A stretch of 64,000 nucleotides of DNA from Eremomyces bilateralis CBS 781.70 (lineage: Eukaryota). A program made the translations under genes and the position numbers. The notes beneath the pieces are model-generated. The model was not told where the DNA came from, did no database searches, and saw only the letters and a list, made by a program, of their open reading frames with translations. Positions 1,198 through 43,429 of the stretch are shown piece after piece (position 1 is the stretch's first letter; the number at the start of each line of letters is the position of its first letter). The stretch is taken from the NCBI GenBank assembly GCA_010015585.1, contig ML975150.1; one strand, given 5' to 3'.

Positions 1198-2013
1198 GAC
1201 GAACAATGTTCGAGACGTCGTGCGACTAAAACTACTAGAACTGTTGCGGTATGGTAGCTGAAGTGATGTCGAATTGGCAGTTTGAAGCCCATGTAAGTTG
1301 TACCATAATCCTCACCAAACATCCTGGCTCGGTCCAGTACTATGTAATACGTACGGACCAAGTGGCTGCTTGTAATACTGTACCTACCTCTACGTACTAC
1401 CGCTGACCTGTGGATCACTTTCCAGTTTCTATACATGGTGATTGGCGAATCGAATAATGATACATGTGCATTGATCGTCAAAACAGCACTCGTGACTCAG
1501 GACTCCGCATGTGAGCAACCCAGCCGTCAGCATCTGGGCCCCGCAATCGCCTGTTAATCAATTCGGGACCTAACGTCTAAATTCTGGACTCTGAACTCTG
1601 AACTATGAAGGACCCGAATTCCTATCCGAAGAAGCATCCTGGCTACTAATTATGAAGACCCATGGAGGTATTCGAGCCCTGACGATCAGCACGCCTTGAG
1701 ATGAACCTGGACCTGCTCTTGATTCATGCTTTCTACATTTCGGGTCAATGTCCTCCGGTATTGTACCTAGTAAGATGCATTTCTCCCCGAGGCCATTTCT
1801 TTCCCTATACTGGACTCGGTGTTCGGTCATATACCGTGTTGTCTATGCGGAGAGATGTAAATTACAATTGCGGTTGGGGTTGACATCGGCGCCTTGAGAC
1901 TATTAAGTATATATGCTCGCCAGTCCCACATGGAATTTCCATCCTGGGAACGAAGTACAGATCCGTCTTGCCTGTCTTGAAATATCTTATGAGTCTCAGA
2001 TCCAGGTGACAAT

Positions 2014-22987: not shown

Positions 22988-24235
22988 ATGACTTCTTCTT
23001 CCCCCTTGAAAATAGTCATTGTTGGCGGCGGCCCCGCTGGTCTCACACTTGGCCTTCTCCTGCACAAACAGAATGTCCCCTTCACGATTTTCGAGCTTCG
23101 TCCGAAGCCCACCGATGAGGACCTCGCAAAGCCCGTCGGCATGCTGGATCTCCATGAAGAATCCGGCCTTGCGGCGATCCGAGAATGTGGTGTCTATGAC
23201 GCATTCCTTCCTCTCACTGGCGAGTGTGCAGAGTCAAATATAGTGGCGGACCAGGACGGCAATCTTCTCTGGGCCGACCAAGGCGAGCTGTCGTTGCGCC
23301 CGGAAATTTCGCGCAATGCTCTACACCGCCTCCTGGTGTCCAATCTTCCTCCGGAGTCGATCCAATGGAGCCATAAACTAGTCTCTGCTACTAGTATTAC
23401 TGTATCCGGCCACACCGAAACCGAACTAGACTTTGGTGCCCACGGAAAGCACACGTTCGACCTCGTCATAGGAGCCGACGGTGCATGGTCCAAGGTCCGC
23501 AACGTGCTTACCGATGTGAAGCCGCGATATTCGGGGATCCAGAACATCAATGTCACGATCCGGCACATCACCTCGAAATATCCCAAGCTTGCCGAGCTGG
23601 TCGGGGCTGGAACGTTCATGGCACTGGGCACAAAGCATGGAGTCATGTCCCAACGCACGTCGCAAGACTCAGCCCGGATCTACTTCGTGCTGAGCACGGC
23701 GGACGAGCACTTTGCAACCGTATTTGGACTGGAGGGCAAGTCCGCGGAGCAAGCCAAGGACATCCTCCTCAACCATGACGCCCTGCTCAAACCTTGGGGT
23801 TCTATCATCAAAGAACTAGTAGCCGTGGCCTGCGACGAAGAGTCGGCGGATAATCCGGGCACCGCGGCCGATATCAAGCCGCTTTACATGCTGCCCGTCG
23901 GGCATACCTGGGAGAACCGACCTGGAGTAACCCTCATCGGTGACGCATCGCATCTTATGTGTCCGTGGGCCGGGGAAGGAGTCAACCTGGCTATGTGGGA
24001 CTCGTTGCTTCTATCTCGAGCCATCATCCAGGCATACGAGGGTGCCGAAGGAGAGTCGAGGTCCTTCCAGAGCGCATTGGATCCCCTGGTGAAGGCATTC
24101 GAAGTGGACATGTGGGCGCGTGCTAAGGAGAAGGCGGACGAGACCGTGGCTAACTGTGAGTTGATGTTTGGAGGTGATGATAGTGCAAAGGCGATGGCAG
24201 ATATGTTTAAGAGCTTCATGTCTCCACAGGGGTAG
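22988..24235 (+). CDS. FAD-dependent monooxygenase, TetX-like subfamily, single exon
   Basis: IVGGGPAG, GMLDLHEESGLAAI, RPEISRNAL, VIGADGAWSKVR and TLIGDASHLMCPWAGEGVNLAMWD. An alternative ATG is at 22961. Confidence 0.9.
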   Translation: MTSSSPLKIVIVGGGPAGLTLGLLLHKQNVPFTIFELRPKPTDEDLAKPVGMLDLHEESGLAAIRECGVYDAFLPLTGECAESNIVADQDGNLLWADQGELSLRPEISRNALHRLLVSNLPPESIQWSHKLVSATSITVSGHTETELDFGAHGKHTFDLVIGADGAWSKVRNVLTDVKPRYSGIQNINVTIRHITSKYPKLAELVGAGTFMALGTKHGVMSQRTSQDSARIYFVLSTADEHFATVFGLEGKSAEQAKDILLNHDALLKPWGSIIKELVAVACDEESADNPGTAADIKPLYMLPVGHTWENRPGVTLIGDASHLMCPWAGEGVNLAMWDSLLLSRAIIQAYEGAEGESRSFQSALDPLVKAFEVDMWARAKEKADETVANCELMFGGDDSAKAMADMFKSFMSPQG

Positions 24236-24445
24236 ATACAGATGAATTGTATCTAGACGACTGCTCATGATGTGTTGTGCTAGTTCTCCACAACTGCGAT
24301 AGTAACATACCTTCAAAAGCTCCGGGCTTTGAGGATCCATTTAAATTATTGGAGCATATACAAAAGCAGAGCAACATCAATCGGCTGAAGCAAGGCGAAA
24401 TGGGTCCATGGTTGAAGTATATCTGGAAAATTTCCATATTCTAGT

Positions 24446-24468
24446 ACATACGGCCACATCAACCTGAA
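24446..24468 (+). pseudogene. 5S rRNA 5' fragment (nt 1-23 only)
   Basis: ACATACGGCCACATCAACCTGAA is identical to nt 1-23 of the 5S gene at 42424. The upstream flank is also similar. Identity stops abruptly at 24469. Confidence 0.85.
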
Positions 24469-24923
24469 CAAATCGAGGACGATGGAGTAAGTCCACCCAT
24501 TTCATGAGGTTAAAACACTATAAAAACTGCTTTTGCCCCTACAAAATTGGCTGCTTCTGCTCTCAAGTGATAGGCACGAGAACGACTGTGTATGGATTGC
24601 AGGGGGTGAACAGGTAGACGGTACTCCGTACCTATATCCAATACATCGCTCTTCTCTCTCATACGTGATCTTTGCTCTATTGGAGTATTCTCTACACTTA
24701 CAGTCCCTAAAATTTGGGAAGAAGAGTGTCACTCGATTTCCTGGATGCGCATCTCCTTCTCCTGGATGTGTGCCTTCTGGGACCTGTAGAGCATTCACCA
24801 CTGCTCGGAGATGCTGATTAGCAGTTTAGGAGCTTCTCCCTTTGGATTCGCGAGGTGCGTAGTGCTCGCTATGGTATACGGAACCTTCGGTTGAGTAAAC
24901 CACATCCCTGCGAAACGACATGC

Positions 24924-27075
24924 GAGAGAGAGAGAGAGAGATTCATACGCCTGTCAGGCCTCTCTGCGAGGCCCATGTGGGGAACTAGCTAGGATGACTA
25001 ATTACATGATGGTTGCCTTGTGTCCTTATGGCCTTGTCAATATATTTCTTTCCTGCCGCTTTCCATTTTCCGCGTCTGTTAAACAAAGGAGAGTATTACA
25101 AGGGTAGTGTATGAAAACGGTCCATTTCCTGGACGTCTCTGTCTTTCTAGGTTGTGTTCTAGAGTGACGCTGCTCTTACTCGGGCACAGCGTCGGGTCAG
25201 AGGGTGGAGACCGTGTAGTTAGTAGAATAGAAAGTTAGTTGGAGAGGAAAGGGGTAGCTAAACCNNNNNNNNNNNNNNNNNNNNNNNNNNNNNNNNNNNN
25301 NNNNNNNNNNNNNNNNNNNNNNNNNNNNNNNNNNNNNNNNNNNNNNNNNNNNNNNNNNNNNNNNNNNNNNNNNNNNNNNNNNNNNNNNNNNNNNNNNNNN
25401 NNNNNNNNNNNNNNNNNNNGCTCGGGGTCCAGCTATTGTCCTTATCTGCCGCCTCTGAGATTCCCATATCGGGCATTCAAGGATGAAGTGACGGACGGTC
25501 TCAGTTACCCCGCACTCGCAGGCGCTGCTTTCGGCCTTCGTGATCCTGTGGAGGTAGCCGTTAAGGCGGCTATAACCTGATCGGACTTGGACGAGGAGCG
25601 CTGCTTGGACTCTCGTTAGGTTGTCGTAAAGTTTCCTTGTATGTCTGCCTGGGAGTGCGTTGTCGAGTGCCTTTACGAAGCGCCCTGTCTTCCTGGCCAG
25701 GAAAGCCGTGCGTTTCGCTCCCTGCTGTCTTCGCCCTTGCCGGATTACATGTCGAAGTACTTCAGTGTACCCTCCGGCTGCGATCCCGCAGAGGTAGCGG
25801 ATTGGGCAAGGGAGTGTGCCTCTTCATTGCCGGGGACGCCCTTATGTGCCGGAACCCAATGGAAGGTGAACGTGAATCCCTTTTCCTTTGTCTCTGCAAG
25901 TTTCCGGAAGATCTCTTGGAGGGTTCCACTCCTTTTCCACTGTGGCGTCTTGATCATGTCGAGGGCTCTTTTACAGTCCGATAAGATATAACAGTGGTCG
26001 AGGCCGAGGCCTAGCGCGGGGATATTAACGGCTGCTTCCGAGATGGCTTCCGAGATGGCGGTCAGTTCTGCATAAAGGGCATCGACGCCTGGTGTTAGTC
26101 CTATTGTGCGAGCTTTACGGAGACGTGGGATATTCGGGGCATAGATCCCAATACCCGCCAGGCCGTTCCGACATGATCCATCGGTGAAAATGGTTCTAAG
26201 GCCGAGCTGGGTGGCCTTCCCGATTGCAATCGTCTCCTCGTTGATTACAACGCAAGGTGGGTCTTGCCATGGCGGCTTAACAAACGCCTCTACCTTCTCG
26301 AGCGTATCTAGCTTGACGTGTTGGAAGAGGTGACCTATGCCTTTCAGTTTTGTGTAGGCGTCGGATAAGTCGCCAGCTATAGTGGTTCGGTGGTTTCGTA
26401 TGCATCTTAATCCAGTGTTTCCTCGTTAGTTCGTAGAGCCTATCCTGGACTGATTCAATCCCGGCCTCACCAGTTACCACGTCGTACGCCGCGGACCTGA
26501 AGATGGCCGTGATTGCGCTCGCCCCCAGTTTGGTGGCCCTCTCGATATGACGGGCTACTGTCCCTGCGGAGCCTGGGAACCAGATCGGAGCACCATAGTC
26601 GGTGGTTGGCGCGACCGTCGCTGTAAATATCTGCCTGACTGCCTTCGGGGTGAGCCCCTTCAACCTCTGGAGTGCCATAGCCGCTTTTTCGCCTCGTTTG
26701 GCCGCCCTCCTCGCGTGGGATTGAAACCCAAGTTTCTGGTCCATTACTACCCCCAGGAGTTTGACGTCCGAGGCCGGCGGTACGTCGCGACCCATAAATA
26801 CCAGTGGCTGGAGCTCGTCCTCGTCCTGTCTTAAACGCTTCGTGAAGTGGATAAATTGGGTCTTATCCGGTTCGAACAGTGCCCCGCTATCCTGGCTCCA
26901 TTTTTCAACCTTCGGTAGGACCTGACTCTGGATTCGCCGGATATTACTTCCCATGTTTGGGCCGGTAACCCACGCCGTGAAGTCGTCCACGAAGGCCATG
27001 GTTCCCGACTGGTCCGCCATCTTCCCTGCGACGAGGTTTGCGTTGTAGAAGAGGAAGAGGATGGGTGAGCAGGAC
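24924..27075 (-). mobile_element. Tad-like non-LTR retrotransposon (LINE), 5'-truncated and frameshifted
   Basis: RT motifs SPILFLFYNA..AFVDDFTAW..KLLGVVMDQKL; RNase H motifs IFTDGS..GLAGIG and WVPAHKGVPGNEEAH; Cys-His motif CECGVTETVRHFILECP; (CT)9 tail at 24924-24941 on the minus strand. Spans an N-gap. Confidence 0.9.
25265..25419. other. Assembly gap
   Basis: Run of N. Confidence 1.
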
Positions 27076-27152
27076 ATTATATTGTGTTTGTATACAATCG
27101 CAGGTTTCACCAGTCTGCCTATCCAGACTCCTGCCACAGTTTTCTGAGCTGT

Positions 27153-28017
27153 NNNNNNNNNNNNNNNNNNNNNNNNNNNNNNNNNNNNNNNNNNNNNNNN
27201 NNNNNNNNNNNNNNNNNNNNNNNNNNNNNNNNNNNNNNNNNNNNNNNNNNNNNNNNNNNNNNNNNNNNNNNNNNNNNNNNNNNNNNNNNNNNNNNNNNNN
27301 NNNNNNNNNNNNNNNNNNNNNNNNNNNNNNNNNNNNNNNNNNNNNNNNNNNNNNNNNNNNNNNNNNNNNNNNNNNNNNNNNNNNNNNNNNNNNNNNNNNN
27401 NNNNNNNNNNNNNNNNNNNNNNNNNNNNNNNNNNNNNNNNNNNNNNNNNNNNNNNNNNNNNNNNNNNNNNNNNNNNNNNNNNNNNNNNNNNNNNNNNNNN
27501 NNNNNNNNNNNNNNNNNNNNNNNNNNNNNNNNNNNNNNNNNNNNNNNNNNNNNNNNNNNNNNNNNNNNNNNNNNNNNNNNNNNNNNNNNNNNNNNNNNNN
27601 NNNNNNNNNNNNNNNNNNNNNNNNNNNNNNNNNNNNNNNNNNNNNNNNNNNNNNNNNNNNNNNNNNNNNNNNNNNNNNNNNNNNNNNNNNNNNNNNNNNN
27701 NNNNNNNNNNNNNNNNNNNNNNNNNNNNNNNNNNNNNNNNNNNNNNNNNNNNNNNNNNNNNNNNNNNNNNNNNNNNNNNNNNNNNNNNNNNNNNNNNNNN
27801 NNNNNNNNNNNNNNNNNNNNNNNNNNNNNNNNNNNNNNNNNNNNNNNNNNNNNNNNNNNNNNNNNNNNNNNNNNNNNNNNNNNNNNNNNNNNNNNNNNNN
27901 NNNNNNNNNNNNNNNNNNNNNNNNNNNNNNNNNNNNNNNNNNNNNNNNNNNNNNNNNNNNNNNNNNNNNNNNNNNNNNNNNNNNNNNNNNNNNNNNNNNN
28001 NNNNNNNNNNNNNNNNN
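27153..28017. other. Assembly gap
   Basis: Run of N. Confidence 1.
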
Positions 28018-28599
28018 CCCTATCGGATGGTTTTCATCTCCCATTTTTATCCCTCAAGAGGCCTCCCTTGATGAAAGGACACCGTGTCTAAGCGGAGGCA
28101 GTAAACACGGTCGTGATGGTGTTGGTGGCATGGCGATACCACGCTCAACGCTTGCGACCTGCACGCGTAATGCGTGCGTCTCTTTCATCGCCACTGCACT
28201 TAGCCATCGATAGAGAACTCTTCCCCATCAATGTTTCCACCCGCGGCGACGTGGACGCGTGCAGTTGGACTTCGCGGGCGGAATCAACATATTAAACATA
28301 AGTTAAGGCAGAAAATTCTACCTTGAAAATTGCTCGCTTCCAAAACCTTTGAGTATGTCCTGGCCGAGCCACCGTGGCCACTTATAGAGAGACCTCCATC
28401 GCAATACGCAACTGCTTCTGGAGAGGCTCAGGAAAGATGGACGCATGGTAGATCTACATTTGCTAACTGAAGGGCAAGTCAAAATAAAATGCGCAAGGCT
28501 TCGACTGTGCAGCTCATATGGTATGCAATCATAGTAAAAGAAACTACTATGATGAAGACTAACAAGGGCAGCCTGGAGCCAATGATCTCTGCCGAGTAC

Positions 28600-30245
28600 G
28601 ACGGGGACAATGTTGGTCTCGGATGACTTGTTACAGGCAGTGCTGGAGACAACCAATGCTTGGACCTGGCTAAAGAATGGTTCCACCGATGTACTCGCTC
28701 GCACGGCAAAGCATGTGCGTTGATCGAAGACGAGCAGTCCCGCGAGACTCGTTCATATCCCACCAGACGAAGCCGAACCCTTGAGAGTATGTCTTATCCA
28801 AGGCTTGAGAGGGCAGTATGCGGCTTTGTCGTACGTTTGGGGAGAGGGCTCCAGATTACAGACAACAACAGCTACGCTCAATGACAGAATGTCAGGCTTC
28901 CGAGCGAGCATACTCCCAAAGACGCTTCGAGATGCGGTCCATGTGGCCCGAAAATTTGGTCTAGAATGGATCTGGGTCGACGCTCTGTGCATCATCCAAG
29001 GAGATACCACTGATTGGAACTGGGAATCCTCCAAGATGGCTTCGATATATGAGAACTCAGCGTTGACCATATGCGCTGATCTTGCCTCGGACACAGACAC
29101 TGGTATTCTGCTACCGCGAGACCTGAAAGTTTCGAACCGATTCGGAGCGAATGAAGAACTTTTGTCTTCAACACATCTCTCAAGACTGGATGCACATGTG
29201 CCACCAGCCGCTCTATTTACGCGGTTGGGCGTTTCAGGAACGCATCCTGGCCTCACGTACTCTTCATTTTCTGGACGACCAGATCGCTTGGGAGTCCAAT
29301 ACCACGCTATATCGAGAAGGTTTCCGTGGACGCCAGGCTTACGCCCCGGATCATTTCGCGAAACACCAACTTGCCGCATACTCCCATCAAGGACGATGCC
29401 CAGAACCCCCAAAGAGTAGCCATGGGCAAGACATCGATCTGCGAGTACGCATCTCCAAGTGGAATGACGTGATCCAAGAAATGGCCATGCGTTATTCCAC
29501 TGTGGATACGGACACGCTGCCTTCGGTGTCTGGCCTCGTCTCTGCGATCCAGACACTAGAGCTAAGTCAGTACTTTGCCGGCGTGTGGTATGGGGATCCG
29601 TTTTCGTCTATGACATGGTACGCCCGCTTTCCTCAGTCCTCTCCAGCATCGTATAAGGCACCTTCTTGGAGCTGGGTATGGACGGCGGGCCGGTTGATGC
29701 GGCGTCGGCATGCTCTGATGGCCGACAGGTAACCAAAGCAAATCGCGAAGTAGAGAAACTGGAACGAACAATACGGGCCACGCCTTCTTGGATACGATAC
29801 GGTACTCAAGAACACGGATCCCCATGGCGAAGTCATGGAAGAAACTCATCTTGTAATGAGCGGCTTGTGCAGAAACGTCTATGTCGCTGAGCATCCAGGT
29901 ACCGTGTATGATGAGTGGACATGGTGTTACGAAGAGCCCAATGAGGAGGGAATGTATGTCCATATGGGCCAAAGGCAGAACGATCACGCCTTCGCATCGT
30001 GCTTTACCGAATATCTTGCGGAAATGTTTCCAGATATTTGTGAAGAATCCGTCGTGTGCTATCTATGTGTGCAGCTTGCTCAGGAGCGAATGCCGGAACA
30101 GGACTTTCCGAAGAATATCGCTCTAATTCTTGAACTGGTCGATAACGATGGGGAGGAGGGATTCCAGCGGGTTGGAATCCTTTTGTTTGACTTTAGTGAG
30201 CAAGATGGTAATTATTGGAAGCGGAGGACGTTGAAACTATTCTAA
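28600..30245 (+). pseudogene. HET-domain protein, multiply frameshifted
   Basis: YAALSYVWG, LPKTLRDAV, IWVDALCIIQGD..ESSKMASIY, RGWAFQERILA, APSWSW and FQRVGIL are spread over different frames, with shifts near 28775, 29155 and 29700-29830. The 5' end is probably further upstream. Confidence 0.88.
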
Positions 30246-30595
30246 ATCAACTCGGGCTCTTACTCTATTAGCCCCTAAACTCTAGTTAGGTTGAGCCCCC
30301 ATCTATTTTCTATAGTCGTTAGCGACATTAGAGAGATTCGAAGCGCACCCTTAGGAATGCATATGATAACTACACCCGGTATAGCGGCGGAAGACGTGCA
30401 CAGCAGCATAGTAGGCATTAATGATGGATGCTTCCGACAGGTAGCAGTTGTTCGTCGTCTCTTCTCGTCGTCTTGTCGTCGGCGAGGTGCAGGCCTGTCA
30501 GTTGGCTCTGTTAGGAAATCGGCGAACGGGTTTTACAAACCCTCCCTACGGAGTACTCCCCAGTAATAATTAAAAACAAAACAAAACAAACCGCA

Positions 30596-32035
30596 ATGAG
30601 CCCCACTCACTCTGCCCGACTGGCTTACATTGACGTCTTTCTTCAGCGCTAACATCGACTCAGTTGTCCGTCGCCAATTTGATGCAGGCTCAGGTGTCCA
30701 CCAGCGATTTTGTTGTTCAACCCCGAGCAGCCTACCCATCACCATCCCGTCACTACGGGGGCAGCGGTGTTCCCGATATCAGCAAAGCTCAAAACGTCGC
30801 CTTTCGTCATCCCGGATAACCTGATGGAGCTAATATCCTGCTCGTACTATCCGCGCACGACGGCCCTAACGGAGGTATTCACCACGACTTTGCGTGGGCC
30901 GCTTGTGCTGTTGTTGCGAACTGTGCATGGGGGGGTTCTTGTCCGGGACGCGAGATGGGCAAAGAGTTGATGTGGGAAAAGACGGCCTCTTGATGGGGAG
31001 TGACTATTACCTTCGATTAACGGATGATGAGGTTCAAGGGGCATAGTAGAAGCGAGAAAATGCATTAGGTGCTGATGGCCCGCTATATAGACATTGAGAA
31101 GTACCCTATCGTCGTATCCTTCGCCCATTTCAAGTTCCCGCACCGCAACCTTCCGCCATACTGGACCTCCGAAGCTCTTCGAATTCCTAGATCGAACCAT
31201 CAGTTCCGTCAGACCGACCTCTCAGATACACTTCTGATGCGCGATAGATCCTGTCGAGTTACCGACCACTACGAAGGAGGAAGGTACTGAAGCCGCGCAT
31301 CTCATCCCGCGAGTCGAAGAACGTTGGTTCAGATCAAACGAAATGTTGAAATACACTTCTCGCCCGCTTCCATCGGTCACTTCGACTGACGACCCTCGCA
31401 ACGCTCCACTGCTGCGCTCCGATCTACACTCTACCTTCGACGCGAAACGCTGGGTCGTGGTCCCGAAGGCAGGAACCTGGGTAGTCCACGTGCTGGATCC
31501 TGGCCCATCAAGGCAGTTTCTAAGCTTATACTACAACGTGACGTTGTAGCCGCTCGAGGACGTGTCAGTTGAATATTTGTTCGCACGATTTGCTTGGACG
31601 ATCTTAAATCGGCTCACATTGACTGGTTTTGCTGGACGACGGAAACCAGTTATTGTAGGCACGGAAGACCAATCGAGTAATATCAAGGAGCTCACGGGCG
31701 AACAGTGGACAAGGCTCTTCCCTCTTCGAACGAAGAGCAGGAGCCAGAGTCCGACAAAAGGACACTGGCAGGAAGCAGCTGAAGAGGATCTTAACGAAGA
31801 AGAAGAAGAGCCCGAGCCCCGGGGTCGAATGAGAAGGAGGAGTTTGAACCTTTCTACTCCCACTTGGTCATCTAGAGAGGATGTTTCCTTGACGGAAGAC
31901 GGAGATAGTCGAAGCAGTACAGGGACAAGTGTGGAAGAATTTGGTCTCTCAAAAAGAAGACAACTCTTACAGCAAGAGCCTAGAACGATTGGGACACCCG
32001 GCGAGAGTGTGGATATGGAGTTCTTAGATACATAG
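30596..32035 (+). pseudogene. Fungal HNH endonuclease (HNH_2) domain protein, disrupted
   Basis: FRHPG*P..GGIHH..ACAVVAN, YPIVVSFAHFKFPH, RDRSCRVT..EAAHLIP, DDPRNAPLLRSDLHSTFD and EYLFARFAWTI. Stops at 30817-30819 and 31547-31549; frameshift near 31280. Confidence 0.85.
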
Positions 32036-33042
32036 CGGAAATAACGGTCAGTGGAATGAGTACTTTGAGTGAACGTGTATATCTGCCGAAGATGGTAGCA
32101 TCAGATTAAATTTCGAAGATCGAACAGTCAACTTCGCAAAGCAAATGACAATATGCCCGCTCATCCGTACTAAATGTCTCGTGGAGCTACGTATGATCTT
32201 CTGTCGTAATAAGAATGAAAAGGAACGGAAGGAAGGAGTAAAATAAAAACTCCTTCGTGCAGCTTCGAGGACCCTAGTCAACCCCCAAAAGGAGGCGTAT
32301 AGGACAAGTCCTGAGAACTATAGAGAAAAGCTTACACATGTTGGGGTTCACGATCAGTGAAGATTCTGAACCCTAGAGACGTTATCGAATTGCTAGAGAA
32401 AAGATGAAGAAGAGGAAAAGGCCTCTCCTTCCGGAGCTCTAAATACACGGGCGTCGCATGGGCGCGATGCGGTTTGCTCATTCACTGCACCATGTGTAGG
32501 CTGCGAACAAATCTCTGACTGAGAGCGACACTGGAAAACTAGGGAGAAACGACAACTTTACAATCCTTTCGGCGGTATTGACCCTCGGATTTCGTTTCGA
32601 CCTCTTTTATACTGCGGGAAGAGTCATGGGGAACGCATCCACCGTAGTACCATCCAACATGACTGCCATTGGCCGGGCTAGAACTGACTATTGCTATACG
32701 AACTTAGTCAAGGAGCGGTTAGAGGGGGATAGCGGAGCTGATCAGGTTTCCTTCACCCAACGCTCCGCCCCCGCCTTGCCTACTCCCCCGCACAATTTAG
32801 ATCCACTCCCCCACTATGTAATGATGAATAAAACCAATTGATTGGCTAGATTAGCTTAATACCCCTTTTGTAAATAGCCCCGGTTCGAATCTTGCACTAA
32901 TTAGTCTTTTTTTCCGCCCTTTTCTCTTTTTTACTACACGGTCTTAATGCCTAAGGCACCTGAGGCATTACATCCACAGATTGGAACATGAACTCCTTGG
33001 TCAAGGTCACGTTGAGGTGCCTTACCAACATATATAATTATT

Positions 33043-33156
33043 AGCGGGACGGGGAGGAGGACGGGGGATAGAGTAGGTATCTACTATGTAGTACACCGCT
33101 GTATAGTCTACAAGCGACTGGGATAGCATAATGAAATCTAATCCAATCTAATCCAA
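33043..33156 (+). mobile_element. Probable 3'-terminal relic of a LINE (or LINE-dependent SINE)
   Basis: A G-rich tract, a short AGTC-N7-GACT stem, then TAATGA followed by a (AATCT/AATCC)4 pentamer tail. This is the layout of Tad-type 3' ends. Confidence 0.5.
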
Positions 33157-33456
33157 CACAACCCAATATATCCTAAACACCCATGTCAATCGACAGGACA
33201 CCTTACTACTTCACCTGGATCTAATCCTAAGCGGGGACATATTCCTGCATTCAACGCCTAGCTCTGCCTGAATTTCAGGCCAAGGCTCACTAATTAAAAG
33301 AAAATGTCCCAACGATGGATGAGCCGAGGAAACTGCTGTAGGGAGGAGGACGACTCGTTATCCAAAAGGACATGCTGCAGCACATACAATAAAAGATAGC
33401 ATCTTTACCTCCTCTCGTTCTTCGAACCTCCCGATACGATTACGACAACATCACAA

Positions 33457-35388
33457 ATGTCGGACTTCAGTCAAAATCAAAGGGTCGCGCCGACCAAAGG
33501 CGCGACTACAACCAAAGAGCTCGAATTCGTCGAGACCATGTCGAATAGTGCAGTCGACCAGCCTCATGTACACGCCAAGGTTTGTCTCATCTTCTCGCTG
33601 AGGATGCCACTGATCCCGACTGTATAGATGAACCCGAAACTCTTCGTCGCACTCCTCACAATGTCGTTCCTCTGGATTGGATCTCAGATTCCCCTTTATC
33701 TGTTCGGCAGCGTGTTACCCCTGATCTATAGCGATCTTGGCGGTGTCGATCGCTACGTGTGGTTCATCATTGGGTACCTCATTCCCTGTGCTGCACTCTG
33801 TCCTTTCGTCGGGGCTCTGTCCGATATCTTTGGCAGAAAGATGGTGGCAATTGTGGGACAGGTCCTGCTCATTCTTGGGCCGGTCGTCACGTCCACCGCG
33901 AACACCATGAACATCGCGATTGGTATGTCTCCCCTCATTCCGTCATCCTCACTCGATAACGTTCGCTTTACTGAATTGGTCGTAGCGGGACAAGTCTTCT
34001 CCGGTCTAGGTGCCGGTCTGAACGAACTGATCGCCCTTGCCGGAACCGCGGATCTGGTCCCCGTTAACAAACGAGGCCAATATGTGGGAGCCGTGGTCTT
34101 GACCATCCTACCCTTCTGCGCATCGACACTCTACGCACAACTCATCGCGAGAGATAGCGACTGGCGCTATGTTGGAATTTTCGTCGGCGCCTGGAACTTC
34201 CTCGGCCTCGTACTCTGCATCTTCAGCTACTCCGATCCGCCCCGGATCTCGACCGAGTACACTCGCAGTGACGTGATGAAAAACGTCGACTACATCGGAG
34301 GCATTCTCAGCACCGTGGGTGTTGTGCTGTTCATGATGGGCATGCAATGGGGAGCCGAACAGGTGACACAGGATCTCCACTGTCTCGATCACGACTAACG
34401 TCCGCAGTACGAATGGCAATCAGTGCAGGTCCTCGTCCCCTTCCTCCTGGGCGTTGTCATCCTCGTCGCTTTTTTCGTCTACGAGTTCAAATTCGCCAAG
34501 TACCCCATGTGTCCGGCCGGGATATTTAGCAAAGACAGACGCACCATGATCTGCATTCTTCTTATCACCTTCCTGTCGGGAGCCAACTTCTTTGTCATGC
34601 TCCTCTTCTACCCAACCCAAGTGTTCCACGTCTGGGGCCACGAGCCAGTCAGCATCGGCTTGAGGACGTTGCCAATGGGCTTCGGCATCGTGATCGGCGC
34701 CGCTATTTCCCTCATCCTCATCCCCGTCACCAGAGGCAGAATCAAACACCTCATGATCTTTTTCACCGCCATGATGACCGCTGGCACAGGAGCTATGGCC
34801 GCCGCACGCACCGACAATCTTCCTGCGGTCCTCGGCATGGTCACTGTGGCAAGTCTGGGTGTTGGAGGCGTCATCATTCCATGCTCCATCATCGCCCAGC
34901 TCATCTGCCCACATGACCTTCTCGGAACAATTACAGCCATCACTCTCTCGATTCGCTACGTGGGTGGTGCGATCGGGTATACAGCATACTACAACGTGTT
35001 CTACGACCACTTTACACCCGATGCCACCCGGCTCGTGGCCATCGGCACCATTGTGCTCAAGGGCATCGTCAACCTCGGCTCCAACCAAGAAAACCTCGGA
35101 CTCATCGAGGAGTTGACAACACTGGCGGCAAAGGCGCAGTTCGCTCAACTCCACGACGTGATTGCGACGGATTCACGAGTGAATCACAAAGATATCGCAT
35201 TCGATCTCATCGTCGACGCCACAGAAGAAGCCATGGCACTGGCGTATCGGTGGCCGTACTGGATGTCCATTGCATTCGGTGGTATTTGTGTCATTCTCGC
35301 ATTCTTTGTGCGAGATATCAGGGCGGTTTTGGATGAAGAAAAGGAAAAGGTGCCGGTTGAGGAGATCCACCACGGCGCACTTCGGTGA
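33457..35388 (+). CDS. MFS efflux pump, TRI12-like (fungal trichothecene efflux pump family), 4 exons
   Basis: FLWIGSQIPLYLFGSVLPLIYSDLGG, VGALSDIFGRK, GAGLNELIALAG, DYIGGILS and SIRYVGGAIG. The frame is intact across three introns. Confidence 0.92.
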
Positions 35389-36047
35389 AATCAACAGGGC
35401 CTATTCAACAGGAATCATAGCTGGTGGGGATATCGAACGGAGAATCATGTCCGCTTCTAAGATTTGCGAGGCTTTTCGGGGTCCTCTTCATTCGAATGTT
35501 CATGTCTTCTAATCTATAAAGTATAAGGGAGCCGTCTTGAACTGATCGCCATCACTATTTGCCGTCCCGCCAGTCCCTTCCGAATGGGCTCCTCTCTGGC
35601 GCGTTTCCTCTACATCATGCGCGTTCATGTTAACTGTCAGGACAAGCCTCACACGGACGACTCGAAGACGGGTCGTCCAAGGGCTATCCGTGTCCGACCC
35701 AGGATACCGATCATCTTCCCTTTTGACCCTACCCGCATCGTATATAGGATAGGAGGCTCCGGCATACCGGCCACTTCGTAGCATCGATACTATATTCTAT
35801 AAAATTGGTTAGAGCTAAGCTCGACGAATGGTCGAACCTCCAGTCCCGGGTCCCAAGGGAGAAATAGCGCTTTAACATTTTAAAGATTCGGGCGGTATAA
35901 GTCTGCTATAATTTGTATAATGGTTCATCGGTCTAAGGAAGCGTATGCGACGCAATGGCGAAGCGACATACCCCTTCTTTGGAACCCCGGGTCTTATATC
36001 AACTGTCTACCATTACTGTAAGTTTGCGTGAGTGTGTGTTCCATTAG

Positions 36048-36220
36048 TGTTACGGCACGGTAGCTGGATGCACACAACATACACATAGCCAAAGATACTC
36101 TAGATTGAGATAAAGAGTAAAGGTATCAGTGACAGAGGAATCTTGACGAGGTTCCATCTCGATGCTACTAGGCTTGATTAGGCTTAGGCTCTCAGCCTAT
36201 GCCAACTAGGGGTGTGTAAT
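36048..36220. mobile_element. Possible degenerate solo LTR
   Basis: Begins TGTTACGG and ends about 170 bp later in GTGTAAT, an imperfect inverse of the start. Non-coding and next to the MULE TIR. No target-site duplication (TSD) found. Confidence 0.3.
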
Positions 36221-36240
36221 GTAAGATGTTGTATAATAGA

Positions 36241-39200
36241 GGGCGGTGAGATTTTCCCCCCGCGCTAGTAATGATGGAAATCAATCGCTGAACTAGGCTT
36301 AGCGCAAATGATTCTATATCTTCTTCAACAGACAACTTCAATGTTTCAATCTATTCCTTATGAAGCCTATCTTCTACTAACGTCGCTGTCTCTTGCGCGG
36401 GCTAAGTCCTTTCCAAGCATTTGAAGCCGTCTCTGCTGCAGCACGCTTAGGACGCTGTCTATGCACATCCCCAGATCCAAAAAGAGGATTTTGAGCAGCG
36501 ACTTGTGCAAATTTTTCAGCATAGAAAGCTTCCATATCTCCAAAGTGATAATTCCATGCCATTGTTGGAGTACAGGAAGCAAACGCCCCTCTTGTCGCGA
36601 GAGCCATATCCCATGCTTCAACTAGTTCTGTAGGGTCGTTTTCCTGCCCTGTCTCTGCCAAAAAATTCATCACTGTGCCAATGTCACTGCAGTTACATAG
36701 AACAGGCTGGAGTCGTCGACGCTCGAAGTCAGCAAAGAACTCTTCCAACGACGGGGGTTGCCAAGCAGGCTGTAGAGGGGATTGAGCCGTAGTAACAGAC
36801 GCAGTAACAGAGACAGGTGAAGACAAATGAGATGGAGTAGGGGAAGATATAGGAGTAGGTGAAGGGATCGATATAGATGGAGAAGTAGTTGTAGAATTCG
36901 TAGCTGTGCAGATGTAGGAACTGATACGGTAACAGCTGTGTTTGTGTGTCGCAAGACCTCAGGAAGTGTTTGACCCTGGGGGTGAGGAGGAGGAGGCTGA
37001 AATTGAGGGATAGAAGGTGGCACACGTCGTTCAAAGCCTGAAAGATCTCGACGAGTTATAGCATTCGTAGGTAGTGCAGATGTAGGAATTGACACAGCGA
37101 CAGAGGTGTTTGTATGTCGTAAGACCTCAGCAAGTGTTTGACCTTGGGGTTGTGGTAGAGAGGGCGGTACACGTCGTTCAAAAGCTGATGGATCTCGACG
37201 AGTTGATGCCTTGTTCTTCCTCGGCGCTCCTCTTGTTTAAGCAGGAAGCGGCTCTAGGATAGATTGATATGGCCTTGGAGAGAGGCTTATTGACCGTCCT
37301 TGCTCACGTTGATAGCGCCAATGATCGTCGTAAAAGTGATTTGGTCGTAATATCGATCCAGAACTTATTACATCTCGCAGCGTATGATGACATGGAAGAC
37401 CGTTTATCTTCTCAAAGAGGCCAGTACAAGGACCCCCGCTACGACGTTGTCTCTGCTCCTTCTAACAACACGCAGCAAGTCGCCTGTTGAAGCCATAAGG
37501 TAGTCCTTCAATACCTTATGCATTCCTTCACCAGGAGAGGTTGTGATTATATTATAGTGTCGATGCTGAGACGTCCAAGCAGCTGCCCACTCGGTACGTG
37601 TATGCCATTGATTGCCACGTAAGTATTGGCAAAGTTCTCGCTGGTCGGCATAGTCTTTGAGTAACTCGTTCCACTTTAGCTTAAATATATGTGGACTCTT
37701 TGCGTAGACAAGCTGCTCCAGTCAGTTCTGTAAAAGAATTATAAGAGGCATTCCCGGAAGCCTTCTAGAAACGCCTCTTAGGCCATTGGCAGGGAGCATA
37801 CCTGACTCTAACGTTTCATAAATTGAGCCCGGTGCTCAGCAATTCTCTGCTTCTCTTCTTTTGTTACGCCATTAGCGTCTCGCCAGGGCTTTTGAGCCTT
37901 TGTCTACACATTCTTGTTGATATGCCATACGCACAGGAGTTATGGAACACCCGGAAATAGAGTGCGAGCTGCTAGTTTTACCGCATCCTCCTGATCGCTG
38001 ATAAACACGCGTGGCTGCGGTGTCCCTGTCTTAAGGAGGAAGTTTGAGATTGCCTAATGGTAATCTGCTTCTTTCTCGCTGTGGAGGAAGCAGAACCCTG
38101 CAGAGAAGAAGGTCTGCAGATTGGTGCAGCCGAGTATGTGCAACAGTGGGAGTTTATACTTGTTGGTTCGGTACGTACAGTCCATCAACAGGGTATCGGG
38201 ATTCGCAAGCAGTAGCTTAATCTGCTTCTGGTGGGCAAAGAAGAGACTTTGTACGTGATTATCCGCATCCTTCTTAACAGTAAAAACCCATTCCGGCGTA
38301 GACAGGTCATCTAATAATGTCTCAATCGGACTCCTCCCATTTAAGTACTTCTCTCTGATTGCCTTCCTCTCGCCGCGAATATCGGTGGCAGATACTAGCG
38401 TGTTCGGATCCTCCTTTTGAATAGCAGCCATTATCTGCATCGGCCGTACCCTAGCATGTGTCATTGATTTAATTGTATCTTCCTGTGCTAATGTACGCTT
38501 GCGATAAACATTATGCGCACTGGGGTTAAGCGACCGGGGATGGTTGTGATGCTTGTGTAGAACCTCCAGCTTCTACTGGTCGTCGCTTTTGTTCTTGAAT
38601 ATAATAAGCCTAAAATGACACCCTATTAAGCGTGTGCTTGTACTCAGAGTCCTTGCTCTTGACTGATAGTTTCCGGATCGATTACAGTGGTAGTAATATC
38701 GTGTCTTGACATTAGAATTGTGAGGTTTACTCCGCTTGAGTAGGAAGCCGTAGCCATGCCGTGCCATGCTGCATGCCATGGTCCCTAAGAGAATTGTAGG
38801 CTTCTTTATAGGACGTGTAAAGACAATCTGGAGGAGGGGCGATATCCTCCATGCTAAGATCTGTAAGAGAAGGAATGTGAGAAAACAGCGGTTCCTGATA
38901 TCAGGTGGTCTGCAAGACAGGTCACAGCGGGAGCTCTGTGTTTGACTAAGAATTGAGACATTGATTGATCTTGCTCCTATACGCCCATATCTAAGTTCTA
39001 TATGCAAATTGATGGCTACCGAGACCCTGGTTTCCTCAAAACGAGCGAAAAAGCAAAGAATGAGGGGTTGGTAACATCGCGGGATGTGTGATACACTGTC
39101 ATGGTTGGGAACACGGGATCGATACCACCTAAATACGAGCAAGAAATGGTGATCACGGGTAGGAAACCGGAAAGCGCTAAAAAACAGAGGTATCTCGAAA

Positions 39201-39384
39201 ACCTGATCTCTAACAAGGAACACCTCCATGCTGGGATTATAAGAGAAAGAACGGATTGAACATTGACGCTGTCCCTGGGCGAAGAGGAGGCAAAATGCGA
39301 GCTAGGCTCAGTTGAGCGATTAATTTTCATCATCACTAGCGCGGGGGCAAAATCTCAAAAGCGGGGGGGAAATCTCACCAGCCC
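36241..39384 (-). mobile_element. Mutator-like (MULE) DNA transposon with TIRs and an inactivated transposase
   Basis: TIRs GGGC(T)GGTGAGATTT..CCCGCGCTAGT.ATGATG.AAAT.AATCGCT at 36241-36305 and about 39295-39384. FAR1-like region HGYGF..YYHCNR..GCHFRL..HNH. MULE core LLMDCTYRTNKYKLPLL..FISDQE. In-frame TAG at 38573 and 38054. Confidence 0.92.
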
Positions 39385-39423
39385 TATTTTAATGTATTAT
39401 AATTTAAGTAATACCTCGTATTA

Positions 39424-40945
39424 TTAATGCCAACTATCAATGGTCTCCTCCTTAAACATCAAGGCGAAATCTAGTTGCTTGGCCGCTTCGAACAGAGGAT
39501 CCATGACATTCTCTGGGAAATTGCAACCATCTATACAGCCTTCGCGGCGGCCGTCGTACACGATCTGGATCCGTTGCAACGGCGACTGCCGCTGCCTCGC
39601 GATCTCCATGAATTCCCCCATCCATTGGTCCAATTCCGTCCCGTGCGTGCCCCCAGGACAGGCCCCGGACCGTGCGAACCAGTCGAACGTCTCCATGACC
39701 AGCGTGAAGTTCCGTAGTTTCGGAGCCAGCAGCGCGTTCGCGGCGTCGGTGGCGTCGAGATCATCGATCCGGTAGCGGGGATTTGCGGTGAAGGTCGGCC
39801 AGCGGATTGTCAGGGTTTCTAGTGCAGGCAGGCCCATGACGTCGAGGGGACGACCGGGCAGCCGGTGGAAACTTCCGATGGCGAGGGAACGCACGGTCGA
39901 ACGGTGGCGGGCAAGAAGCCAGTTAAAGAAGGTCTGGTCATCGTCTGGTGGGAAGGCGACCTCCTCGATGTTATTGTACTCTTTGTACGCGAAGTGCTCG
40001 ATGGTTTTACACCAGTTAACGATCGTCGAGAGGATCAACTCGTCGTGGGAGAAATCGCCGATATCTACCGTAGTAAACGGCGCGGTGCCCTCCTAATAGG
40101 CGGAGTTATTAGCGAGAGAGCAATTACATCGACAGCGGAGGGTTAAATAGGGGTTTGAATAGGAAGAAGAGGGGGTGTGGACATCGATCTTAACTAACTT
40201 TGAGAAGGGCGACGTCGGATCTCGATATTGGTACGAAGCCGTAGATTTGGAGCGCTCGGTCACAGAGGCTCGATCTAGAGCGCATTATATTATAGCAAAG
40301 GCTGTATCCCTCCCTTTCATGCTCAACATCAATCAGCATGACATGATTGATAGACCCAAGCCGCTTCCAAATACCGGCGAGTGGACCAGCACCGTCCGTA
40401 ACGCCTGGAGGACGGATGTCCAGGGGAAAGCTTACAAGCTTAAGACATCGGAGGTTCGCTGTCAACGACAAAATTTCACAGAAGACTTCGATATATTGTT
40501 CGGGCTCCAATGTCTCCATGCAGTACTGTTCAATCATTAAGGTGTGGCAGCGTTGAGCAAGCGCTGGGTTACCTCGGAGCGTGGCATGTAAACTGGCGAG
40601 CCGATCCGAGCGCCGCGGGAATGAGATGCCCAACCAGATCTCGATGTGGCGGTAAAACAGAGGTTGAAAGATCGAACGAAAGCGACGGCAAACTAAGGGT
40701 AGCCAGAAGGCTTCATGGGACGGTCGAACGTTCGGGTGCGGGCATCTTTGTAGACCATCGTCACTCTTCTGCTTCATTTCCTCGCCCGTGCTGGAATGGA
40801 TCTCCTTAGTATCTGGTACAGAGAATGTCGACGCGCCATATCCAATAGAAGCGTAGTCGAGGATTAACTCGAGGAGCTCGTCCGACAGACGTAAGATAGG
40901 AGACTGCTCGTTCAGCTCTCTGTTACCGGTGGGTGCAGCCGACAT
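39424..40945 (-). CDS. F-box domain protein, 2 exons
   Basis: SPILRLSDELLELILDY..LPLVCRRFRSIFQPLFYRHI. An intron near 40094-40198 joins the two ORFs in frame (VALLK|EGTAPFTT). Confidence 0.85.
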
Positions 40946-42423
40946 GCTAGAGCTGACCGGAAGGCGGAAGAGATCGTCTTACTAGAGCATCAGTTAATAG
41001 ACAGTAAAACTGCGTCCAGTAAGTGTTTTCTACTATTTCCTAACAAATACGAATGGAGATGAATTAGATGATAGTTAAGAGCTTAAGAGCAGCCATAGAG
41101 ACGTGAGGATTGATCTGGTGGCGCTATTAAACTATAAATAGAGCTACTAACTTGGCAAAGATGATAGCGTACAGAAGCTAGCTTAAATTACATCTCAGCT
41201 GGTAACTTATACAGCACGTAGCGGCTGATACAATACTGCGGTGTACGGATCACTAAGAATCAATGTGTATAGTTTACGCCAAGAGCTCCAAGGTGGCTGT
41301 GCATTCAGAAATTCTGGAGTGCACCAAGGCGGAAGGTGATTTCGCTAGTGACTGTATCAGGATGATGGTCTTATTATCTTGGAATCCCTTCGAAGTTTAG
41401 CAGCGGGAGCCTTCGCCCGATTGCTGCATGAAAATTTTCAGCCTCTCGCTCGTTATATTCCGCCCCTGGCGCGGCGGTGCTTCGCAGCCAGTGATCCCAT
41501 CCGACAAGCCGATTTCCCTCAGGAATGTGCGAATGCCATGCAATTATGGGCCATATCTACTGAATCGACTGGACCAATCACAGTCTCTTCAATGCGTATT
41601 CACCAGGCAACGTTAGTGCGCGGTCGGAGTGCGGGAGGGTTTGAAAATGTCGGTCCTTTGGTCTATGCCTGCCCATCAGAGCTTGTCACTTTGAATGCCT
41701 CCTTGAATTGGGTACCAGATATACCGCGTAGCTTGATGTACATTATTCACACCTCTGCTGTTCTAGGGAATGGAACCCTTATGGTCTTCATCGGGCATGA
41801 AGAGGCCAAAAGAGTCGCCCCACCATCCTTCGAGCAGAAGGAAGCGCTGAGTGTGTCAATGTGATATTTAGGATGCGTAGTAGTTAAAGAAGGAAGGAGA
41901 TGTACAATCTCCCTCTCGAAAAATTTATTGTTTGCCCCTATCGCAATTCACCTCTGATATTGACAAATCTACTTGTTCTAGCTAGCTTTTCTTCCCATAG
42001 CATATGATGTTTTCAAATGAATCGGAACCTGAATATGGCCATGGAACTGATTGGCATGGGCGACGGCGTTCTAACACGATACACTGCAGCAGTGGATTTA
42101 GGAATAAAAGAGGAGAACTGTGCATGGTGTAAGGTAAAGTAATTAATGGACGCTAACAAATGACACGGTCTGGATGCGCAAGGTCTGCGATTACCAAGTT
42201 CCATTAATCTAAACTGAAGAGAGAGAGAGAGAGAAATCTCCCGGCACCTTTTGTGCGCGAGATAGCGACTCTCCTCTCCAATGCCCTAATGCTGTGTTAC
42301 CATGTTTGTTTGCTTCTCTGATATAATCCACCAGCCACCTCTTCAGCCACAACCAAGGGAACAGGCCGGAGGCCTGGGACCATAACAGCTAGATTGATAT
42401 TGTGAAAAGCTTCACCTACAACT

Positions 42424-42542
42424 ACATACGGCCACATCAACCTGAATATAGGGCATCCCGTCCGCTCTGCCGTACTCAAGCAGGTTAGAGATGGAATAGT
42501 ACTACGGTGGGTGACCACGTGGGAACTCCCATTGCTGTATGT
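42424..42542 (+). rRNA. 5S rRNA, copy 1
   Basis: 119 nt. Helix I ACATACGGC/GCTGTATGT, conserved CCCGTCCGCTC and GGGTGACCA motifs, and a T-run terminator. Confidence 0.95.
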
Positions 42543-42610
42543 TTTTGTTTTTGTTTGGTTGAATTTTGCAGATTGCTAGGTTGATATTGTGAAAAGTTTC
42601 AATTACTACT

Positions 42611-42729
42611 ACATACGGCCATATCAACCTGAATATAGGGCATCCCGTCCGCTCTGCCGTACTCAAGCAGGTTAGAGATGGAATAGTACTACGGTGGGTG
42701 ACCACGTGGGAACTCCCATTGCTGTATGT
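42611..42729 (+). rRNA. 5S rRNA, copy 2
   Basis: Same as copy 1 except C>T at nt 12; same terminator. Confidence 0.95.
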
Positions 42730-42932
42730 TTTTGTTTTTGTTTGGTTGAATTTTGTAGATCGTTGGTGGCTGGATAGTGGATAGAAGCAAGGACTTATGA
42801 AGCGTTTTAGCGATGAGGGTGGGGTCCAAACGGGACGAGTTTCGGTTATTTAGTCGATTCTATCTTGTCCACTCTCCGATTTCAAATTTCAATAACTATG
42901 GGTACATAAGTCGTGATTTCGCAAGCCATTCC

Positions 42933-43429
42933 CTATCTCCTCTTCTCCTCCAGGTGGCGCAGTGGCCTGACATGAGATGAGTGAGTGGTTTCATCGCGGC
43001 GTCCTTGGTCCTCGTCGATCATAGCGGCACTGCCTTCCAAGCGATGGGTTTTGGCGCCGTACATGTCGCGGGAATGCTTTCCCTGGTTGCGTCCATGGCC
43101 CGCACCGAAGTAATCCTGATCTGGTTCGAGGAGAGAATGTTAGCCAGCGCCACGAACGCTTCTGCGACCCATATATTAGAGGTCGAGGGTGACCGGTCCA
43201 GAACTTACTCTTTCTAAGAGGAGAGATCTTGGATTCCTCGATGTCGTGATCGGTGCCGACGGATTCCTCCGGCATCTCGAGGCAGTGACCCTCTTTGAGA
43301 GGGGAGCCGAGAGGGTCGATCTTTGACTCGGCGATCTCGGGATCGTAACCTCTTTCGTGTCTGGATCGTTGTTCAGTACCGAAGTCGCATCGTAGATCAT
43401 TTCATGGTAGGGACATACTGTGAAGACAT
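42933..43429 (-). CDS. Small hydrophilic protein (116 aa), 3 exons, unknown function
   Basis: Exons 43429-43419, 43360-43209 and 43120-42933, with GTATGT/GTAAGT donors and CAG acceptors, give an uninterrupted MSSQHERGYDPEIAESKIDPL..EESKISPLRKNQDYFGAGHG..EEKRR*. A TATTTAAAA element lies about 90 bp upstream. Confidence 0.8.

Follow-up and report, generated by a model that had tools for sequence, protein, structure and literature searches.

A 5S rRNA gene cut at nucleotide 23 beside a non-coding repeat in Eremomyces bilateralis CBS 781.70: a possible insertion hotspot among resident genes

The question raised by this locus is how a 5S ribosomal RNA (rRNA) gene came to be broken after its first 23 nucleotides (nt), and whether the 18 kb between the broken gene and a tandem pair of intact 5S genes constitute one mobile element. 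The locus lies in a 64,000-nt stretch of contig ML975150.1 from Eremomyces bilateralis CBS 781.70 (assembly GCA_010015585.1), which is the window analysed here; the interval at issue is 24446-42760. An initial annotation made from the sequence alone had offered two readings of the interval, namely a degraded or captain-less 5S-inserted cargo element, or a 5S-associated insertion hotspot. The explanation that we prefer, with about as much confidence as doubt, is a 5S pseudogene made by a possibly 5S-targeted repeat (repeat R), followed by nested insertions of a long interspersed nuclear element (LINE) and a Mutator-like element (MULE) among resident single-copy genes, which amounts to an insertion hotspot.

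Depth and boundaries were taken from k=31 contigs of three public runs, X1 and X2 from the probable source sample and X3 from another organism. A single-copy sequence had a contig depth of about 160 in X1. Of the public runs, only X1 and X2 contained the left flank; X3 had next to none of its words, and none of the X3 contigs matched the unique flanks at ≥90%. Profile scans covered 60 open reading frames (ORFs) of ≥80 amino acids (aa) and 143 ORFs of 42-79 aa (22925-45490 and 24219-42977), together with 104 ORFs of ≥110 aa from the rest of the 64-kb window, which gave 307 ORFs overall. Runs of N were present at 25265-25419 (gap 1) and 27153-28017 (gap 2, 865 N), with 1,020 N bases in total; gap 1 was spanned by one X2 contig.

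The 5S sequences and the features attached to them were as follows.

24410-24445, plus strand: 5S-type, promoter-like upstream flank of the stump, from alignment with the flanks of both intact genes
24446-24468, plus strand: 5S stump, nt 1-23 (pseudogene)
42161-42387, plus strand: repeat Y, high copy, immediately before the 5S pair, containing (AG)9 at 42218-42235
42388-42760, plus strand: tandem pair of 187-bp 5S units, from Rfam and the direct repeat

The stump was identical at 23/23 positions to the start of the first intact gene (42424-42446; blastn-short E 9e-8) and matched the second intact gene at 22/23, nt 12 being T in the latter and C in the stump and the first gene (C12). The 36-nt flank upstream of the stump showed the TATAT..GAAAA..TTTC pattern common to both intact genes. 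In a three-way alignment, 19 of the 36 flank columns were invariant, and 21 of 36 matched the second gene by our own count; the flank and stump together gave a 59-nt blastn match at 81%. With nt 1-23 only, no internal control region and a 5S-type flank, the stump has the features of a truncated 5S pseudogene. The promoter-like flank indicates that a real gene was broken at the DNA level and that the stump is not an RNA-derived copy. A retrocopy or template-switch chimera of 5S rRNA was ruled out by the same flank.

The stump with its 5S-like flank and the pair of genes at 42424 and 42611 had both been reported in the initial annotation, and both were confirmed. The intact genes were full-length matches to Rfam RF00001 (42424-42543, 85.1 bits; 42611-42730, 88.2 bits). 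The reported lack of an isolated 5S 3′ half also stood: cmscan (E ≤10) identified no further 5S pieces in 20000-46000, and blastn-short across the window returned only chance-level 10-12-mers. Candidate degenerate 3′ remnants at 42026-42036, 32639-32650 and 28283-28292 were rejected as chance matches of 10-12 nt (E 0.34-1.4; the last one judged by eye), and cmscan found none.

The two tandem 5S units (42388-42573 and 42575-42760) were 96% identical. Upstream of them, the left flanks before 42161 differed among 13 X1 contigs and among 10 X2 contigs. The depth of repeat Y at 42249 was 15,724, or approximately 96 times single copy; the 5S region and repeat Y stood at approximately 70-100 times single copy, with approximately 70 copies of the 5S itself. 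Given this divergence of the X1 contigs, the combination of Y and 5S looks like the standard dispersed 5S unit of the genome. The unit that seems to hold the 5S genes measures at least 410 bp (42161-42573), starts sharply on the left at 42161 and has a copy number close to that of the 5S. Between the tandem units, five of the seven mismatches fell within the 36 nt upstream of the genes (42388-42423 and 42575-42610), where identity was 86% compared with approximately 99% elsewhere. In X3, one contig matched the 5S gene to nt 45 (window position 42655) and continued with 43 nt of unrelated sequence; it may represent a 5S copy broken at a different position in that organism.

Four features occupy the ground immediately to the right of the break.

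24469-24923, no strand assigned: left part of repeat R (R1a), non-coding, multicopy, adjoining the 5S break, from depth and profile scan
24924-24941, minus strand: (TC)9 microsatellite tail of the LINE, reading (GA)9 on the plus strand
24942-27072, minus strand: 5′-truncated non-LTR (long terminal repeat) retrotransposon of APE-RT-RNaseH type, with 3′ untranslated region (UTR), the C-terminal half of ORF2, one frameshift and gap 25265-25419
27073-28280, no strand assigned: probable continuation of R, comprising 27073-27152, gap 27153-28017 and R2 (28018-28280)

R1a had no Pfam match in ORFs of ≥42 aa, and no second copy of it was found within the 64-kb window. The depth of bin 24267-24933 was 1101, compared with about 164 for single copy, with an upper bound of approximately nine copies. 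R2 was also repeated, with a bin depth of 1078 and a unique contig beginning only at 28251, and the region 27602-28268 stood at 7-17 times single copy. The right end of R was seen in X3 as well, as a loose end behind 28278. No ORF, terminal inverted repeat (TIR), LTR or Helitron ends were found in R (the TC..CTRR and TG..CA ends being judged by eye). R1a, 27073-27152 and 28018-28280 are probably one non-coding repeat split by the LINE, on the presumption that it continues across gap 2.

The extent of the LINE was defined from both sides. An RNase_H domain was identified at 25748-26425 on the minus strand (Pfam, E 7.5e-15). ORF P0241 (25420-25802, minus strand), which is not in frame with the RNase H ORF, aligned with two ORF2 proteins of 1268 aa each, at 57% identity over aa 1126-1222 of one and 52% over aa 1098-1211 of the other. 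The C-terminal part of ORF2 thus runs up to gap 1, which it meets at a position corresponding to aa 1222/1268. By tblastn, aa ~596-667 through ~1223 mapped onto 27068..25419, and as the match started at 27068 in 5/5 queries, this LINE copy is 5′-truncated. The segment 25147-25193 matched the 3′ UTR of a related locus, L002 (48 nt, 83%). Among 79 related LINE loci from the metagenome (L001-L079, 322 kb), 30 longer ones were hand-picked for a tail check; a microsatellite was present 210-353 nt past the ORF2 stop in 17/30, as (TC)n in L007 and L008, and three of the 13 tail-negative loci had <120 nt of downstream sequence. The assignment to the non-LTR retrotransposons is based on the ORF2 homology, the 3′ UTR with its simple-repeat tail and the 5′ truncation. 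The target-site duplication was unconvincing, consisting only of GACAT at 24917-24921 and 27073-27077.

The end of ORF2, the 3′ UTR match and the tails of the relatives place the end of the LINE at the (TC)9 tail, and the 455-nt R1a is therefore not part of it. Among the 79 related loci, nhmmer identified no 5S at E ≤10; there was one 18-nt blastn match (E 0.11) and one motif match inside a coding region. This LINE family is thus not 5S-specific. A 5S-specific LINE with its 3′ end at the 5S break was ruled out, since the LINE ends at (TC)9, 455 nt to the right of the break, and its 79 relatives are without 5S.

The LINE body had a depth of 2.3-2.5 times single copy, with approximately 4.5 times at position 25128, and contigs aligned over it showed 9 differences from the window in 868 nt. 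The tails of related APE-RT-RNaseH LINEs were lineage-specific (AAAG, TTCA, CAAC, AATC, TC, TG, ATCC, TAC and ATTGT). The segment 24924-24987, comprising the last ~45 nt of the LINE 3′ UTR and the (GA)n tail, had a bin depth of 5738 compared with ~400 for the body, and a back-joint 24981->24932 was present. The excess fits many extremely 5′-truncated copies, or a short interspersed nuclear element sharing the 3′ end of the LINE. Joints 24981->42161 and 24987->42312 were considered as an 'empty' or joined form of the locus and rejected; their shorter sides were 22-32 nt, each was supported by a single contig from a single run, and (GA)n is all that the two regions have in common.

To judge whether the junction between the stump and R is unique, the ends of the contigs are informative. 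The unique left-flank contigs run through the stump and stop at 24471 (X1, a 61-kb contig) and 24468 (X2). At k=31, ends at 24468 and 24471 place the start of the shared sequence at approximately 24439-24442, which is the start of the 5S gene and not the break. The same rule predicts ends at 28280 and 42158, and independent loose ends were observed at 28278 and 42161. These contig ends suggest that other copies of R may carry the same 5S stump, and that R itself may be 5S-targeted. A 22-mer across the junction had no matches in the metagenome scan.

A non-specific rearrangement, in which 5S nt 23 became joined, through deletion or end-joining, to a site somewhere within an ordinary dispersed repeat and no 5S targeting took place, would predict a unique junction, with contigs reaching ~30 nt into the repeat (to ~24498); the observed stops were at 24468 and 24471. 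It would also leave the coincidence with the target region of Voyager Starships, described below, unexplained. Consistent with such an event, truncated 5S copies are frequent in fungi (PMC5555474, in part), no 5S 3′ half, target-site duplication or terminal structure was found at 24469, and the 79 related LINE loci (322 kb) are without 5S. We consider this explanation unlikely.

An artefact of scaffolding would leave the stump-R junction real and make the join over the 865-N gap wrong, so that the stump and the 5S pair would not be 18 kb apart. Both R and the LINE are multicopy, gap 2 is unbridged and is entered only by a lone 38-nt loose end from the right, and the LINE contigs differ from the window at 9/868 nt. 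Against this, gap 1 is bridged by a contig, the repeat on both sides of gap 2 is consistent with one element, and housekeeping genes lie on either side in the scaffold. A false join is, in our view, quite improbable.

On k-mer depth, the interval as a whole comprises two single-copy gene blocks and four or more repeat blocks. The features beyond R are listed below.

28281-35965, plus strand: single-copy block with HET, HNH_2 and major facilitator superfamily (MFS) genes, depth ~157-295 (X1)
~28560-30250, plus strand: HET-domain gene (Pfam HET 28724-29416; ends approximate, by eye)
~30680-32030, plus strand: HNH_2 gene (Pfam HNH_2 31238-31546; ends approximate, by eye)
~33400-35388, plus strand: TRI12-type MFS transporter (Pfam TRI12/MFS 33628-35385; ends approximate, by eye)
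35966-39600, minus strand: repeat block, MULE within another repeat (outer repeat 35966-36240 and 39385-~39600)
36241-39384, minus strand: MULE transposon with degenerate transposase (MULE 38057-38572, PF10551 E 1.1e-8; ZSWIM RNaseH-like domain)
39424-41864, both strands: low-copy block with two minus ORFs and one plus ORF, function unassigned, from depth
39424-39837, minus strand: ORF of the low-copy block
40190-40945, minus strand: weakly F-box-like ORF (F-box-like_2 E 0.033, F-box E 0.078, both sub-threshold)
41538-41864, plus strand: ORF within the open frame 41352-41861

Unique contigs covered the single-copy block at 28251-31140, 31441-32173 and 32149-35965. The region 28269-35605 was single copy, with a slight excess (up to ~1.8 times) in three bins at 30937-32937. 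The MFS gene was intact once a 45-nt intron at 34363-34407 (GT..CTAAC..AG) was recognised, and the HET, HNH_2 and MFS genes look intact where examined. The region 35606-39607 stood at 17-32 times single copy. Its MULE was assigned on inverted repeats of 99 nt (36247-36345 and 39259-39357, 75% complementary), and no clear target-site duplication was identified at its termini. The depth of 39608-41608 was 1.1-1.9 times single copy. For the segment 39422-39573, at the 3′ end of ORF 39424-39837, approximately half of the depth carries 5 variant bases, which points to another, diverged copy elsewhere in the genome; X3 carries the variant form at 91% identity, though it shares no flanking genes at ≥90%.

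The identities listed in the initial annotation were borne out by Pfam for the LINE, the HET, HNH_2 and TRI12-type MFS genes and the MULE; the F-box gene was matched below threshold only. In line with its placement of conserved genes outside the interval, housekeeping-type genes were present on both flanks: an ammonium transporter, sterol glucosyltransferase, aspartyl protease and FAD monooxygenase on the left, and SH3, glycosyl hydrolase, Slx4, AIR synthase and malic enzyme genes on the right. The proposed island is not the only place with HET and MFS genes, since a further HET ORF (802-1311, minus strand) and a further MFS ORF (2482-3414, plus strand) were identified beyond it, near the left end of the window.

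The position of the break nevertheless recalls a known group of giant transposons. Voyager Starships insert into a target printed as GCCCTGTATTCT, 20 bp from the 5′ start of the 5S gene (PMC9156397, in the part describing the target). In our own comparison, the homologous stretch at this locus spans nt 20-31 (TGAATATAGGGC), and GCCCTGTATTCT corresponds to its reverse complement, with a 10/12 match. The junction retains TGAA only (4/12 bases) of the Voyager 12-mer. As the target is printed as the reverse complement, the captain would be expected at the far end of an element inserted here, and its absence beside the stump would be expected as well.

On these grounds, the interval could be a degraded Voyager-like Starship, in which the stump would mark the non-captain end and R the conserved terminus. 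The HET, HNH_2, MFS and F-box-like genes would be cargo, the LINE and MULE would be nested, and the captain end and the 5S 3′ part would have been deleted or rearranged away. The break lies inside the Voyager-homologous target, with the captain expected at the far end. The genome has 15 predicted captains and no resolved elements: the starfish supplement lists Eremomyces bilateralis with tyrCount 15 and elementCount 0 in S8, and with 19 tyrosine-recombinase rows on 16 scaffolds in S3 (PMC11162782, supplementary tables S3 and S8). No Starship is yet delimited in this genome, and captain genes are present elsewhere in it. R2 is common to X3 at ≥90% without shared flanking genes, and the shared part ends at 28278, like a boundary between a conserved end and variable cargo. 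HET and MFS genes and a transposon content of 15-50% are typical of Starships, according to part of PMC9156397.

However, no DUF3435 (PF11917), DUF3723, ferric reductase, patatin or NACHT gene was identified in the 307 ORFs scanned across the 64-kb window, its N bases being outside the scan. The statement in the initial annotation that DUF3435 was missing is thereby upheld. The only Starship-associated conserved gene found was a HET gene without NACHT. The label 'degraded Starship' has been reserved for at least three co-located conserved genes (DUF3723, ferric reductase, patatin-like, NLR), as far as the text of 10.1101/2021.12.13.472469 that defines it goes. A TIR partner for the left end was not found, as 24469-24540 scored 15 against the reverse strand of the interval and shuffled queries scored 15-16. 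The second boundary and a direct repeat of Voyager type were not found, the 12-mer being reduced to TGAA, and the right 'end' is a standard 5S unit. The 18 kb fall short of the 27-393 kb published for Starships (PMC9156397, in part), and the housekeeping genes that begin ~4 kb to the right of the 5S pair mean that an element cannot reach further. The putative cargo is not odd in similarity, either. The malic-enzyme ORF is 100% identical to a protein of Eremomyces bilateralis CBS 781.70 and 76% identical to its nearest match in another species, from which we conclude that there is no close sequenced relative, and the 65% identity of the best MFS match is not unusual against that 76%. A degraded Starship is therefore rather unlikely. 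The first proposal of the initial annotation, a degraded or captain-less 5S cargo element at 24446-42760, was not supported: core genes, a TIR partner and a 5S 3′ half are lacking, depth is a mosaic, and what was proposed as the right boundary proves to be an entire 5S gene preceded by an upstream region of its own. Two observations do speak in its favour, namely the break within the stretch homologous to the Voyager target and the contig ends hinting that the stump-repeat junction recurs.

The two copies of the 23-mer raise a further possibility. An exact 23-nt repeat is present at 24446-24468 and 42424-42446, and its right copy opens a complete 5S unit with the high-copy standard upstream region; no 5S 3′ half is present. 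Integrases that target tRNA genes can regenerate an intact target gene at one end of the integrated element. By the same logic, a captain-less integrative element at 24469-42446, bounded by the 23-bp direct repeat (spacing 17,978 bp), would have recombined within 5S nt 1-23 and, bringing its own 23-mer at the right end, would have left an intact 5S gene on the right and the stump on the left. The repeat is perfect (23/23) and includes the derived C12, which is missing from the adjacent tandem 5S gene; the boundary of the repeat family lies at the 5S start and not at the break; and the concentration of tandem-unit mismatches (five of seven) in the 36 nt before the first gene would fit a separate origin of that flank. 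On the other side, 42161-42423 is a repeat of ~100 copies with many left flanks and looks like the standard 5S unit, not the end of an element. No recombinase is present, R has a right end of its own at 28278-28280, and the copy numbers of the two ends differ (R ≤17 times, Y ~96 times). The weight of C12 also depends on its frequency among the ~70 5S copies. We regard an element of this kind as highly improbable.

The preferred explanation, a 5S pseudogene within an insertion hotspot, is drawn from the stump, the LINE with its 3′ end, the copy-number mosaic and the lack of Starship core genes in the sequenced bases, all of which were observed directly. A genuine 5S gene with its own promoter-like flank would have been cut after nt 23, and its 3′ part would have been replaced by the non-coding repeat R (24469-24923, 27073-28280). 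The LINE would later have entered R by target-primed reverse transcription, leaving its tail at 24924-24941 and its body to ~27072. To the right of R lie single-copy HET, HNH_2 and MFS genes, which would be resident, followed by a MULE in another repeat, two to three low-copy ORFs, repeat Y and a 5S tandem pair of normal structure. Either R or some larger element that ends in R may target 5S genes at nt 23/24, in which case other copies would bear the same stump. The missing 5S nt 24-120 may have been deleted during or after insertion, or may lie within the 865-N gap. The second proposal of the initial annotation, a 5S-associated insertion hotspot, fits the repeat adjoining the stump, the LINE nested in R, the MULE nested in another repeat and the high-copy repeat upstream of the 5S pair.

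Several points weigh against this explanation. The depth values are summed contig means, inflated near the (GA)n run, and are thus rough. R is of unassigned class: the one copy available has neither an ORF nor a tail, and its ends resemble neither TIRs nor those of an LTR element. The X1 and X2 contig ends are 3 nt apart and might in part be due to an intact sibling 5S gene with the same 7 bases upstream. The 5S nt 24-120 are absent after the right end of R at 28280, so that a small, 5S-specific R needs an assumed extra deletion. C12 is common to the stump and to the first intact gene 17,978 bp away, and not to the tandem twin of that gene, a pattern for which the direct-repeat model accounts more directly. 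The break at nt 23/24 lies within the Voyager-homologous target stretch. Gap 2 is spanned by no contig, and the continuity of R and the scaffold join there are presumed.

A bolder proposal makes R the conserved terminus of an element that targets 5S genes; all copies of this element would carry 5S nt 1-23 and would recombine within these first 23 nt. At its most far-reaching, the proposal treats all 17,978 bp as a captain-less integrative element, with the stump on the left and an intact 5S gene regenerated on the right. Such an element would use a eukaryotic 5S gene in the way that integrases use tRNA genes, and one of at least 15 captains would mobilise it in trans. We think it improbable that this proposal is correct.

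Pseudogenes that retain the 5′ half of the 5S gene occur in Aspergillus. Truncated 5S pseudogenes make up 18-83% of copies in filamentous fungi (Rooney & Ward 2005, as quoted in PMC5555474). The pseudogenes of filamentous ascomycetes, as described in part of PMC5555474, resemble the present locus in being dispersed copies with a partial coding region that are unable to fold. In contrast to them, the stump here has a length of only 23 nt, matches a functional gene nearby without a difference and keeps its flank, and the boundary of the adjoining repeat family seems to take in the stump.

The Voyager Starships of Macrophomina phaseolina, Botryosphaeria dothidea and Alternaria tenuissima share with this locus a host among the Dothideomycetes, insertion ~20 bp from the 5′ start of the 5S gene, fragmented 5S copies, HET/NLR-type genes, transporter-like cargo and nested transposons. 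They are larger, at 74-124 kb, and have a DUF3435 captain and TIRs, a 12-bp duplication at either end and empty sites known from other isolates (PMC9156397, in part). The 5S-rich Starship hotspot on chromosome 3 of Aspergillus fumigatus (10.1101/2024.06.28.601215, in part) is similar in its clustered 5S copies, fragments and repeated independent insertions. It differs in having identified Starships with captains and direct repeats that segregate among strains, whereas conventional transposons and an unclassified repeat were seen here, in one genome. Mutsu, a 5S-specific non-LTR element (PMC5340908, in part), and the Dada DNA transposons (PMC3706591, in part) would be comparable only if R sits at the same 5S position in several loci. 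Both are animal elements with known coding capacity, as far as those sources go, whereas R is without an ORF and its specificity for several loci would follow from contig ends.

For a call of Starship, a broken 5S gene with cargo-like genes nearby is insufficient; the copy-number structure and both boundaries must be shown. If the stump-R junction recurs at other 5S genes, the Eremomycetales, a little-studied group, would hold a 5S-targeted element near the position used by Voyager in other Dothideomycetes. This would bear on whether 5S targeting arose repeatedly or was inherited, and on the persistence of non-autonomous remnants of giant elements.

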